A stretch of DNA of 64,000 nt. It comes from Paraspadella gotoi (Eukaryota; Animalia; Chaetognatha). Shown in pieces: positions 21,501 through 27,500 of the stretch. The DNA lies in the NCBI GenBank assembly GCA_051294375.1, contig CM119271.1, positions 10,191,605 to 10,255,604 of the forward strand. Reading direction: 5' to 3'. Each line of letters begins with the position of its first letter. Positions within the stretch are counted from its first letter, which is position 1. The notes under the pieces were generated by a model. That model searched no databases and was not told where the DNA came from. It worked only from the letters and a program-made list of their open reading frames with translations. A program made the translations under genes and the position numbers.

Positions 21501-24500
21501 CTCGTCTCTCTCTCCTCTCTCTCTCTCTATCCCACCTCTAAAAACCAGAATTTCCATTTTCATTGCCGCACACGACGCCATTCGAAAAATCTCCCGACTC
21601 TCAAACAATCGCATTTCCAATCAAATTACCAAGCAGCGACCCAAGCATACACCCTCTCTCCTCCCGCTATATATACATTATACATTATATAACTACCTCA
21701 CAACTCATTACACAACCGAACCTGATTGTGGTATTCGATTCCCATGCTTAGAGTATTAACCAGGATTGCCAGCAAGATGCCCCGTTGGAACCAATTGGCT
21801 TCAACCAAGACCTCAAACTTCTTCTGAACCGATTCATGAGGCTCAACTTCTTTTTCTTTTCTTTTTTTCCTTCTTTTTTTCTTCCTCCCTGGGAAAGGAG
21901 AAAAGGGGGGGAGGGGGGGAAAGAGAAAGAGGGGAGGGGCAGAAATGTTATTATTGATTGAACGATTGTATTGTCTTTTAAAGGCGATGACATTTAACAC
22001 TACAGCGAGAAGAAAAACAAAGAGAGAGAGAGAGAGAGAGAGAGAGAGAGAGAGAGAGAGAGAGAGAGAGAGAGAGAGAGAGAGAGAGAGAGAGAGAGAG
22101 AGAGAGAGAGAGAGACCGATAGACCTCTGAAAAATCACACTCTCGCGCTTTTCATCGTTCCACTACGCAAATATCACGGCGTAGATTCTGACGAAGATAT
22201 AGAGTGACTTTCCTCCCCCTCCGCCGGCTCGAGTCTCGCAAGAGGTTGTCACAACAAAATGATTTTCTTGTGACGGATGGACGCGCGACAACGCGGTGAA
22301 AAGGGGGCGGGCGGAGGCGAGTCGGTGACGGTATCAAACTTCCTCCTTCGAAATTCGGTTTCCATTTCTCCACTTCGCCGACGCCAGCATTTTTTTTTTC
22401 TCTCTCTCTCTCTCCAACTCTCGACGAATGTCCGACCGGATCCGATGTCATAACAGGATTTTGTGTCGTAAGCCGAAAGGAATCGAAAAGCTTGAGAGAG
22501 GAACAAACAAGAGAAAAAGCTAAGAGGAGGGGGTTTCGTCGTAGTCGCGGTGATTGGTATTTAAATTGATAATGTTTGTTTTTTAATTACAGTTGATTGT
22601 ATGCATGTTGCGTAATGTCCTAAATCCTAAATCCTAAATCCTAAAGCACTACAATTTTTTTAATATTCTTTTTGATGCGATAATCCTTTCTTTTTTCGTT
22701 TGAAATAAACAGCCGGAATACAGTCCCAATACTACTATCATATCGGGTACATAAATTTAAAATTCTTTGCTTTCTCTAATATTCTTTTTAAAAAAATATT
22801 ATACTAAAAACTAATTGAATAAAAAAAAATAACTGACAGACAAAATTTTTAATCATAAAGTCCGTAGTCGCGGTTAGACTCGCTTATAAAAATGGCTCTC
22901 TCTTCCGAAGGTGCCACATTTCTGTTCGTTTTTTCCAGAATTTAATTTAGATTCTATAAAATAATAAACCAATTCCTAACCCTAATCCGTAACCCTAATT
23001 TAATCCTGAACCCATACCCTAATTCCAAACTTAGTATCTAACCTTTAACCTAATTTTAAATTAAAAAAATTAACCTAATTCAGAATATAAGATAGAATGG
23101 GGCGTTCTGGGAAAATAAACGTGTAAACCAAGTTTTCGACTCGCGGGATCAATAATTTTTCAACTCTTAGGCAACCGAAAATCATAACTGGATCGAAAGA
23201 AAACAAATTGCTAAAAAAAAACTCTATAAATCAACATTTAACTTTTAAAAATATCCAAAATAACGATTTCGAGTTTTACGATGAGATTTTTTACTTTCGC
23301 GCTTTTTCTGATCACGCTTCTTGGAACGGATTCGGCCGCGGTCAAAAAATGGCCGCGTTACGTTCCGTTCACGATCGTGGGATTTCCCCGTCACGCGCGC
23401 GAGAGATTACTCAGGTGATGAATTGGTGATCTGGTTAATTTGGTGATTTGAGTGATTCGTATGACGATTGTAACGACGCCAGAAATCCAATTGGCGAAGC
23501 GATCGGTTTAACCAATACCGTTCTCCCGGACCTCTTCCACAGCTACCTCCGCGAATGGACGGTCGTGGTCCGCCCGCTCGACCACGCCGACCAACGCCAC
23601 ACCTGCTTTCACTTCCGGTTTCTCTCGGCCGCCGACTTCCACGCCCTCGTCGGCGACAAGGTCATCTTCGAAGAATCGGCCGATAGAGAGGATCTCTCGA
23701 TCCCTTGGCCGGAATCGATCGACGAGTCGACCGGAAAGATTATACGGTAAGGGTGGTCCGGATTTGGGATTAGTGTATTTTTAAAACGCTTAAAATGATA
23801 TCGTTAGGATATGGTAGGATATTGAAACGAAATAATTTCGTTGGTATTGTAAATTTTTGTTTTTTTAAAGACGTCTTCTTTACAGAAATGAAGAGAGTGG
23901 AACAATTTAATTTGCATATAAAAGATAAAAATACAATTTAAAAAAAAATTATTAAGGACAAGTTCATGGCAAGAATGCTCTAAGAAGCTCAGGCTTTATA
24001 TTTCTAAAATATACCTAAGTGCAAGTATACCGAAAAAATTTTAATGTTCATGATGAATTACAAGAGAACTTTCATACTTTTTCAATAGACTTTTAGATAA
24101 ATATATACGTATATAAAAACGAATTGTTATGACAATAGAAAATTTCCACTTTCCACTTTGTACTTTGACCAACAGTAATATCTCTTCTGTTATCAATGTT
24201 TCTATTTTTGTTATTGTAATGTTATGTTTTATTTTCTTTTCTTTTTTTACACCGTTTCTGTCTTTTGATTATGGTTTTTAATCTCATTTTTGTCATTAAA
24301 AAAAAAAACAAGACCAAAAAAATACATCTGCTTATCATAGCCTCCGCTGGTCAACGACCTTCGTGGAGACTCGTCGAGTCTACATCCTCCACCTCCTCGG
24401 TCACCTTCTCCACCTCGACGACGTCGACGTCGCTTCAGCCGTCATGCGTCGCCGCAATCACGCCCTCGCCGCAGCAGCGAGCTCCGGATTCGACGAGGTA

Positions 24501-27500
24501 ACGACTGCGGACAAGCGACGCGTCAGGGACGAATACTGCGCCGAATACGAAGTCGTGGAAGACGACGGGACGCTGGGCTACGCGCGGATCGAAGACGACG
24601 CCGATGAAGACCTCTTCCGACGCCGGTTGGTCGCCGCTTTAGACATCAACATCGCCGTCATCGCCGGCGTAGTCGTCGTCGTCCTTTTCATCATGTCCGT
24701 CACCGCCTGCGTCTTAACGAAGCGGCGGCGGGAAAGACGCCGCACGATCACGACGCCGCCGCCGCCGCAACTGCTGCGTCAATCGTCTACATCCTCGACG
24801 GCGACTATACGGCGCCGACCGCCGCTGGCGCCGACGGCGTCGCTTCCGCCGCCTTACGACACGCTTCCGCCGGACGCCGTGTTTTTCGAAAAGTGTCTCA
24901 AGGCGTCGGAAGATCTCCGAGAGGCGTCGGGGCGTCATTTTAACTTTAATCCGTCGACCTTTTCGACGGAAGAGGGCGCGACGGCTTCAATGTCGGAACC
25001 ACCGACCACGCCCACGATTCCCCTCATCCGCGTCAACAGTCTCCCTCGTCGCGCGATGACGCCGCCTTTGACCCGAACGCCCTACGACGTTCCGAGACCG
25101 TCGCCGACGACGACGCCGAAGACGGCGTTCGGGGCGACGATCAATTCGGCGTCGAAAACGAAGCCGCTGCCGCCGACGCCCGGAACGCCGGTACGACGGC
25201 CGGTGTCTAAATTCAACAGCCTTCCCTTCAACTTGACGCCGAGAAAGTTCGTCAAGGAAGATTTTGTCTTTCGCGGCGACGAATTTCGCGACGACGATGT
25301 GGACGACTACGAAGAAGACGACGACGACGTCGACGAAGACGGTTACGTCGACGTCGGCAGCACCCACTCGCTCGAGAATACGAGGAAGATCTCGATGGCC
25401 TCGTGAGGAGCGAATTGGGAGGGGGATTGAGAAGAGGGGGTGTGGAGGGGGGAGGGAAAAGGGGGGACATGTTCCGAGACGACGAGAGCCGAGTCCAATG
25501 GTTTGGTGACAACCGAGAGGGTTAAAGCTACATTGTTGCCATGACATATAAACTAAATATACTTTGGTGTCGCTGTTTATTTATTCGATTCGAATATGAT
25601 TAATTAATTATAGTGTTTGAAACCAGATTCGAATTTGTTTTTTAATATATTTTTCTTTTCTTTTCTTTTCTTTTCTTTTCTTTTCTTTTCTTTTCTTTTC
25701 CCTCCCTTCCTCCCCTTTCTCACCCTTTCTTCCTTCTTCTTCGTCATATTCGTCCTCTTCCTCTTCCTCCTCTTCCTCCTCCCCTTCATCGGAGAGGGAG
25801 TCTTCCTCCTCGCTCTCCCTCTCGCTGTCCACCTCTCCCGTCGATCCTCTTCGCTCCTCCTCCTCCGAATCCTCTTCCTCCTCCTCCTCGCCCGGCCGCA
25901 GCAGCCCGCGCTGTTGCGACGACTGCTGCTGCATCCGGAGTTCTTTTGTTTGCAACAGTTGAATCCCGTTGTTGCGGTGCTGTTGTTGTTGCTGTTGTTT
26001 GTCGTTGTTGTTGGGCTTGGCCTCGACGCAACGCTCGTCGAGGCACGCGTTGACGACGACACCGTTGTTCAGCGCGGCGACGGGAATCTGTTTGCCGCAG
26101 TCCTTCAGCGTGCACATTTCGTACTCGGAGTAGCACGGGCCGTGGGTAGCCGCGCGGGGGTTTCCGTTCGAATGGCCTGGGGAGNNNNNNNNNNNNNNNN
26201 NNNNNNNNNCCCGGGGGTTAGATTTTTTTTTTTGGGTGGAGGGGGCAGTGGGAAAAAATTGTGTCAATAATACGAGGTCGGTAATCGCGAGAAATGGGAC
26301 TGTCTAGAGTCAATATTGTTAGAATAAATTGTTAGGTTTTTCCCGCGAGATTCTCAAGCAGTAGGACTAAGAACCGAGAGAGTTATCGTCGGTACAATCG
26401 AACTTCAAGTCCCGGTAAAAAGGGTCGTCATGAGGATTTCTTGTGATAAAAAAGAAAAGTATTGTCGTTGCTTTTACGTAATGGCGCCACCTGTCCAGTT
26501 TTATTAAAGGCGCTTTTTTCCTTGTGCGATATTAATGCAGTTATGGCCTTTTTTTTTTACTTTTTTACGATAGGCATTAATCTTTATTTTGTATTTTAGT
26601 CATTGTGATTAAACTTTCTTCGTGTGTTTTAGGTAATTGAAAATGAAGACAAAGTCTTGTTACAGCAACGCATTTTATTTTAATGTACAGACAAGTTTTC
26701 GGGCTTTCATCAAGCCCTTCATCAGTGCCTTTGACAATTCACAGTTTTCATGTTTTCCAAATTACAACGTTTGAAAGAGAGAGAGAGAGAGAGAAGAGAG
26801 AGGAGAGAAATAGAGAAGAGAAGAAATGGCCAACAAAGATATGAGACAGGACAGTGGGTGAAAATGTGTAGGACAGGTTTAAGTTTAGTAGAGAGAGTAG
26901 AGAGAGAATTGAGGGAAAAGAAATTAAATTTGTGAATGAGGGAGAAAGAGAGACAGAGAAGCATGAGGTTAACAATTTGTGTAAGAAGAGTTACATTAGA
27001 AAATGTTACAACAATTGATACAATTTAATAATGACAGACTTAAACAAACTAAAATTTTAAATTATTCAGATAAATTAAATTAATAAAGGAAGTGAAGTTT
27101 AGAATGAAATTGAAATAAAGATGTTGGGGATAGGTAAGTGAAAGAGTAAGAGAAAATAAGAAAAAGAAAAAAGCTAAAATTGAGCTGGCCCCCCCAGGGT
27201 CAACATTGGGGGATGCTGACGATGGCAAATACTGGGCATCTGTTCAGAGAAACTGACTGTCTTGTGGCCTGTCCCATGACCCAGAATCTGGGTTCTCAAG
27301 AGTATTAGAGAGGGCGATTTACATCAAAGCCCTCGAGCCCTCTCTGAACCGTGATGGGAGGACGATTCGACTCCTCGCTAGCTATGATTCGCTTATTAAA
27401 AGTGTGGTGAGCGCCCTTCTCCACCACAAGCCGCACGATGACTCCTCTGTCCCACTCAACGGGCCAGGCGGAGACCTCCCGATACGCAAGGGATGTCCCG

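Follow-up and report, generated by a model that had tools for sequence, protein, structure and literature searches.

An apparently nested gene of the chaetognath Paraspadella gotoi encodes a predicted membrane protein with a putative protease-dead metzincin ectodomain

Metzincins carry the zinc-binding motif HExxHxxG/NxxH/D, in which the glutamate is the general base and the third metal ligand can be either histidine or aspartate (PMC11674741). Among the dead-metzincin receptors presented in the available text of a review (PMC11266112), only ADAMs appear under M12 and none under M10: ADAM11, ADAM22, and ADAM23 are receptors whose dead domain offers its surface to LGI proteins (PDB 5y31 is named), and UNC-71 of C. 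elegans provides a second precedent. ADAM22, which binds its ligand on this surface and signals through motifs of its tail, is our working model for the protein described here. Its gene lies in a 64,000-nucleotide stretch of P. gotoi DNA (GenBank assembly GCA_051294375.1, contig CM119271.1, positions 10,191,605 to 10,255,604 of the forward strand; hereafter the window, in which all coordinates are counted from its first letter), an animal sequence with AT-rich introns. An initial annotation had proposed that the window contains a nested antisense gene for a receptor-like protein with a dead metzincin ectodomain. As detailed below, we consider it likely from sequence comparison that this ectodomain is of metzincin origin, probably in the form of a reduced fold.

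The spliced gene is real and expressed. The transcript evidence is a 1,521-nt contig from a single run (X1, public) of a single study. The RNA label of this run is our guess, but a contig without either intron represents a spliced form. Its three segments correspond to 23171-23411, 23540-23745, and 24340-25405; the intervening 128 and 594 nt, bounded by GT..AG, are missing from it, which places the splice joints at 23414/23543 and at 23746/24341, the latter being a junction already proposed. The resulting forward-strand model has three exons and an open frame of 467 amino acids. Exon 1 (23171-23414) comprises at least 110 nt of 5' untranslated region (UTR), the ATG at 23281, and the codons for the predicted signal peptide (residues 1 to ~18-20), an astacin/BMP1-like first strand, and the start of the backing helix. 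Since the frame from this ATG stops at 23416, an intron is required: intron 1 (23415-23542, 128 nt, GT..AG, phase 2), whose joint is present in the contig. Three in-frame acceptors exist for it, with the two unused AG (23452 and 23482) inside the intron, and the letters LFH, initially read as coding, fall within this previously unnamed intron. Exon 2 (23543-23746, residues 45-113) encodes the end of the backing helix (Trp50), an 11-residue insertion, and the HTC.xF strand, which contains Cys66 (codon at 23604) and is followed by more predicted strands. Intron 2 (23747-24340, 594 nt, GT..AG, phase 2) has 26% GC, compared with a third-codon-position GC content (GC3) of 0.74 in the coding frame. 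Exon 3 (24341-25406, residues 113-467) ends with the stop codon at 25404-25406, beyond the end initially proposed at 24545; the ATG at 23281 is confirmed. Four letters differ between contig and genome: three in the first piece (two of them located, both in the 5' UTR), none in exon 2, and one, synonymous, at 24806 in exon 3. The 5' UTR has an in-frame TAA at 23239-23241 and, within the contig, no upstream ATG; the protein therefore has no prodomain. Just upstream of the transcript contig, a low-depth X1 contig (22962-23168, depth 3.8, with a 13-base insertion) may be a 5' UTR extension or a repeat.

The encoded protein is predicted to be a type I single-pass membrane protein, organized as a signal peptide (to residue ~18-20, from hydropathy only), a domain of ~160 amino acids (~21-181), an acidic stalk reaching to ~214, a hydrophobic helix, and a 228-amino-acid tail. 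Its ectodomain of ~195 amino acids contains only two cysteines (66 and 179) and no N-glycosylation sequon. The predicted transmembrane helix (residues ~215-238; 24645-24716, forward strand; Kyte-Doolittle window mean up to 2.9) is followed by KRRRERRR and then by the predicted cytoplasmic tail (24720-25403, forward strand), rich in Pro, Thr, Arg, and Ser and with an acidic end. The hydrophobic N-terminus after the ATG and the hydrophobic helix after the domain agree with the initial annotation, as do its four motif regions (residues 22-32, HTCFHFRF at 64-71, 127-150, and 166-179).

Profile alignments support the proposed metzincin fold. By motif scans we fetched 122 astacin and 117 matrixin loci and kept 114 and 68 full-enough domains, respectively; in spot checks, 9 of 9 astacins matched PF01400 and 11 of 11 matrixins matched PF00413. 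Aligned with hhalign to the 68-sequence matrixin profile, residues 20-205 obtained a local score of 32.3 (probability 70%, pairwise E 4e-5) and a global score of 21.5, neither equalled by any of 150 shuffled sequences. With the full astacin profile the local score was 22.8 (0/150 shuffles) and the global one 4.3 (5/150), and residues 20-129 aligned with the N-terminal half of the 114 astacins at 22.5 locally (E 9e-4) and 14.4 globally (0/150 shuffles and 0/500 on repeat). This half shows the astacin pattern W-P..VP[YF].I, a backing helix ending in Trp, and TC.xF, a likeness that is weak by HMMER. Masking the 11-residue His motif leaves the astacin signal in place, and the two matches are therefore separate. 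A template joining an astacin N-terminal half to a matrixin C-terminal half, built after the pattern had been seen, aligned over 105 columns in one piece with a probability of 68% (0/300 shuffles, 0/31 control windows). When 330 real open reading frames (ORFs) sampled from 407 served as controls, 3, 2, and 2 of them beat the query in three comparisons; four of the controls that did so were frameshifted halves of metzincin genes and the fifth, judged by eye, starts with an MMP-type closing helix. Also by eye, the segment that begins with the Trp and ends with the HTC.xF strand has 14 of 35 residues identical to BMP1, the alignment requiring two gaps of one residue each besides the 11-residue insertion, and the His-to-Met segment has 9 of 19 identical to karilysin, with an equal spacing of 18 residues. 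A putative C-terminal helix (24498-24539, forward strand) ending in Tyr178-Cys179 (Cys codon at 24537) aligns globally with the closing helix of matrixins and is also helical in the single exon-3 fold model. Taken together, the alignments put the elements of the metzincin fold (five-stranded sheet, backing helix, active-site helix, Met-turn, and C-terminal helix) in their proper order. The resemblance exceeds chance relative to shuffles and real-ORF controls, but does so only moderately if one corrects for having chosen from all families.

Two observations are independent of this post-hoc choice of template: the spacing set by the RNA-defined splice and the positions of the cysteines. The RNA-backed acceptor of intron 1 yields a Trp-Trp spacing of 26 and the astacin global score of 14.4; with the other two acceptors the spacing would be 46 or 56 and the score 1.2-1.3. 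In astacins, the spacing is 26 or 28 in 24 of the 30 measurable sequences among the 114, with a mode of 26; correcting the splice, with LFH assigned to the intron, brings the protein closer to astacins. Astacins have the disulfides C42-C198 and C64-C84 (PMC9848320); Cys66 and Cys179 occupy the C42 and C198 positions, and both C64-C84 partners are absent. Only one of the 114 sequences of the profile, which is bacterial, has a C42/C198-type pair; since the profile hardly contains it, the pair counts as additional evidence. We infer a Cys66-Cys179 disulfide like the astacin C42-C198 bridge and a probable astacin/BMP1-tolloid ancestry of the ectodomain. Because of the N-terminal match and the cysteine positions, we favour as its parent a tolloid-type astacin that would have lost its lower subdomain over a matrixin-like gene.

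The degenerate zinc motif (24390-24446, forward strand), visible in the sequence and in the alignments to matrixins, reads His130-Leu-x-x-His134-x-x-His137-x-x-Asp140, with His130 at 24390, Leu131 at the Glu position (24393), His134 at 24402, His137 at the Gly position (24411), and Asp140 at the third-ligand position (24420). Lacking the Glu, it departs from the active-peptidase signature HExxHxxG/NxxH/D. Met148 (24444) aligns, by sequence only, with the Met of the matrixin Met-turn; the turn reads S-A-V-M-R-R, with Arg in place of the post-Met tyrosine and proline. The initial annotation had identified the first His and the Met, as well as the replacements of Glu by Leu, Gly by His, and the third ligand by Asp, all of which we recovered. 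The genome and the independent spliced X1 contig agree on Leu131, which rules out an assembly error; where HExxH motifs are broken, Leu is one of the residues enriched in place of Glu (PMC3650047). The aspartate is no defect per se, since the metzincin motif admits His or Asp at this position (PMC11674741). Because Leu131 occupies the place of the general base, the domain is predicted to be protease-dead and, provided that the fold is right, catalysis has almost certainly been lost. Zinc binding may possibly persist via His130, His134, and either Asp140 or His137.

Compared with BMP1/tolloid-like and other astacins (M12A, PF01400; PDB 3edg for BMP1, 3edi for TLL1, 1ast for crayfish astacin, and 4gwm for meprin beta), the protein shares the signal peptide, the W-P...P-F-x-I-x-G-x-F start, the backing helix ending in R-x-W, the HTC.xF strand, the cysteines equivalent to C42 and C198 and, with meprin beta, a membrane-bound state. 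It differs by the absence of a prodomain (Trp24 comes after the signal peptide and FxGDI is missing), the catalytic Glu, the SIMHY tyrosine, C64-C84, and CUB, EGF, MAM, and TRAF domains, and by its long proline-rich tail. Residues 141-148 also lack the family Glu and xxRxDRD that follow the third ligand in astacins (PMC9848320), and His and Met are 18 residues apart instead of the 45-75 found in 112 of the 114 fetched astacins. This distance of 18, the S-A-V-M turn, and the short lower subdomain recall matrixins (M10A, PF00413; karilysin, PDB 2xs3/8b2q, MMP-1, MMP-8, and the membrane-type MT-MMPs, which are type I membrane proteins). In contrast with them, the N-terminal half is unlike the matrixin profile, there is neither a cysteine-switch prodomain nor a hemopexin domain, and, relative to HExGHxLGLxHS and MxP, spacing and several letters fit but Glu, Gly, the third His, and Pro do not, M-R-R standing for MxP. 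Like the pseudoprotease ADAMs (M12B: ADAM11, ADAM22, ADAM23, ADAM29, and UNC-71), it is predicted to cross the membrane once and to have lost catalysis while retaining the Met-turn of its metzincin domain; unlike them, it has no prodomain, disintegrin, Cys-rich, or EGF domains, only two ectodomain cysteines, and no evident PDZ-type end, and its sequence leans towards astacins and matrixins, the two families whose profiles were compared here. As the initial annotation had stated, prodomain, hemopexin, CUB, and disintegrin domains are all missing, the prodomain being excluded by the upstream stop and the others not being seen. The protein consequently falls outside astacins, MMPs (features in PMC3102199), and ADAMs as these families are defined. 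Our literature searches turned up no bare dead astacin or matrixin ectodomain combined with a membrane helix and an adaptor tail in the texts available; among MAM/EGF astacins, membrane-bound members other than vertebrate meprins are not apparent in the available text of a survey that screened only intact motifs (PMC9848320).

The losses relative to astacins come in matched sets: C64 would have gone together with C84, the buried residues of the N-terminus together with the family Glu and RxDRD, and the prodomain together with the catalytic base, leaving a lower subdomain of MMP length. Such pairing would be more in keeping with a domain that was trimmed but still folds than with decay at random. 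On balance, we lean towards a protease-dead binding receptor that signals via its tail, a role proposed from the anatomy of the protein. Having neither prodomain nor general base, the domain would arrive at the cell surface ready to bind, with no need for processing, and could hold an extracellular partner by its surface loops or by what was once the cleft, in the manner of ADAM22 with LGI1. Inside the cell, the tail would recruit WW-domain ligases, SH3 adaptors, and tyrosine kinases, coupling the receptor to WW-, SH3-, and SH2-domain proteins. We looked in the tail for six patterns, whose P values (10,000 shuffles) are uncorrected: one PPxY (residues 282-285, at 24846; P 0.075), three SH3-type RxxPxxP (P 0.023), two acidic tyrosine sites (Tyr436 and Tyr448, each after an acidic run; P 0.013), and single matches at chance level to RxxSxP, YxxP (Tyr361), and PxxPxR. 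That just two of the six fall below 0.05 weighs against this reading. A narrower version, which we regard as doubtful, would make this BMP1/tolloid-type domain without prodomain, base, and exosite domains a stand-alone receptor for substrates or inhibitors of astacins, relayed by the tail; it might then sense chordin-type or matrix proteins and form a class parallel to, and independent of, ADAM22/23, a proposal held with equally little confidence. If the receptor reading is true, a bare astacin/MMP-like pseudoprotease on a stalk with an adaptor tail would mean that receptors arose from sheddases along a second route, independent of the first, and in a domain of minimal size (~160 residues) that would be easy to express and test. 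It would also show how small a metzincin can become and that such genes slip past exon-wise family searches. For the moment its reach is limited to one gene in one animal lineage, with a predicted fold.

A rather unlikely alternative is that the ectodomain is unrelated to metzincins and belongs to a type I membrane protein peculiar to its lineage, the metzincin look having been picked by eye, and by chance, from a long window. Several results favour it and weigh against the metzincin origin. Searched one exon at a time, Pfam, NCBIfam, and PDB sequences gave no metzincin match for any piece, and homologue searches made in the same way gave no orthologue or homologue of the gene, an absence that may reflect sampling because the neighbouring CD36 gene has relatives of only 56-60% identity. 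With HMMER, the astacin profile scored -1.1 bits (placing residues 22-52 on the first strand and backing helix) and the matrixin profile 3.1 bits, surpassed by 6 of 2,000 shuffles; the HH probability was at most 70% in every comparison, and the two halves match two different families, picked after the sequence was seen. Masking the His motif abolishes the matrixin signal, the match of the N-terminal half to matrixins is no better than that of shuffles (22/150 and 118/150 as good), and the closing helix does not reach significance by itself (75/150 and 59/150 as good). The His-to-Met spacing in the matrixin set was fixed by the fetch pattern and therefore provides no test. The exon-2 fold model has a strand at residues 48-54 and a helix at 74-84, unlike astacin (low confidence, pLDDT 58.5); the fold models, each of a single exon, are uninformative about the zincin fold. 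The best single E-value, 4e-5, multiplied by 24,736 Pfam families is ~1 and fails correction, and three of the most conserved letters of the motif depart from HExxHxxGxxH. Against a chance resemblance, two separate halves match in the correct order, with a Fisher combination of their E-values of ~7e-7, or ~0.02 after multiplication by 24,736 (hand arithmetic, optimistic, with families chosen afterwards); the astacin spacing is restored by the splice that the RNA defines and that the initial annotation did not have; and both cysteines sit on astacin bridge positions. The zincin fold initially proposed is thus backed by alignments, with an astacin-like N-terminal half followed by a matrixin-like His-to-Met region, and met only blanks in library searches.

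If the metzincin origin is accepted, the protein could still act otherwise than as a signalling receptor. We give a low probability to a membrane-tethered decoy or co-factor that traps substrates or inhibitors of astacins/tolloid or MMPs and whose tail serves trafficking and turnover only. The closeness of the N-terminal half to BMP1/TLL1 (by eye) would fit this, as would a PPxY motif compatible with ubiquitin-dependent turnover; substitution of the Glu can preserve active-site geometry (PMC11674741), and decoy or accessory roles have been proposed for inactive ADAMs (PMC3650047). However, tolloids recognize their substrates through CUB/EGF exosites (PMC9848320) that are absent here, the lower subdomain, which gives the cleft its shape, is far shorter, and a 228-amino-acid tail with multiple motifs exceeds the needs of a tether. 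Quite improbable, in our view, is an active non-canonical metallohydrolase or metal-sensing ectodomain with zinc on His130, His134, and Asp140/His137 and another acidic base: three His and two Asp do cluster in residues 130-140, the Met of the Met-turn is retained, Asp is permitted as third ligand, and a prodomain would be dispensable if activity were low or constitutive, but the base is Leu also in the independent contig, the turn Gly is His, and the post-Met Tyr and Pro are Arg. The nested position, together with the association of dead ADAMs with Kv1 channels (PMC11266112), could suggest that the protein serves the host Cav3 channel as accessory subunit or as regulator and is co-expressed with it through nesting, as ADAM11/22/23 organize Kv1 channels; we hold this to be very improbable, position alone being no evidence of shared function and the two genes lying on opposite strands. 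A decaying pseudogene or an assembly artefact, which the gaps and the error-ridden inverted duplicate of the window might bring to mind, is hardly credible and largely refuted by the open 467-amino-acid frame, the canonical introns, the spliced contig with a single synonymous coding difference, and the coding-type GC3.

The nested antisense position of the gene is supported by its flanks. On the downstream side, a minus-strand exon at 21719-21820 matches domain II S1 of human Cav3.2 (E 5e-10), with further Cav3 domain II exons at 18871-20374 on the same strand. On the upstream side, APRASPExxD, a conserved motif of Cav3 I-II linkers (PMC3376122), occurs at 50501-50530 (minus strand) within an ORF (49991-50617, minus strand) in which Asn/Gln-rich sequence follows it, ~28 kb upstream of domain II S1 in the assembly. 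These matches support the location of the gene, on the opposite strand, in a linker-region intron of a Cav3 T-type calcium-channel gene, if the scaffold is right across its gaps; none of the 98 ORFs scanned contained a Cav3 domain I exon. A GC-rich minus-strand ORF at 25750-26300, which spans a run of N, encodes three cysteines along with a run of Gln and a long one of Glu/Asp and lacks any database match; it is likely a Cav3 I-II-linker exon and would then be the immediate upstream flank of the nested gene.

A stretch of ~11 kb that includes the gene (19473-30303) is repeated in inverted orientation at 31192-42400, around an N gap (30403-30754), with 85-91% identity and a predominance of indels. 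The inverted part contains a second, frameshifted gene copy (35460-37623, minus strand) with 104 inserted, 48 deleted, and 28 mismatched bases relative to the gene, in exons and introns alike, which likewise reads Leu-Leu-Gly after the first His position. We rejected this copy as a paralogue: its error profile is that of an uncorrected long read, pointing to an assembly artefact, and the inverted repeat is likely a fold-back long read used as scaffold filler. Further near-duplicates occur at 44189-46754 and 47546-50980, and a short GC-rich segment resembling coding sequence recurs at the gap edges (29258-29968 and 30869-31666) in several copies, which have diverged and carry frameshifts. A 600-nt element is found in inverted pairs, 86% alike, at 26640-27225, 27806-28394, 32494-33082, and 33663-34248; the pairs flank a GC-rich segment (27257-27887) with open frames on both strands and no Pfam match, and the element is possibly a small transposon with terminal inverted repeats. 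The CD36/SCARB-family gene mentioned above lies at 3206-8838 on the forward strand (PF01130, E 9e-32 and 2e-39), the identities given there being those of its best relatives.

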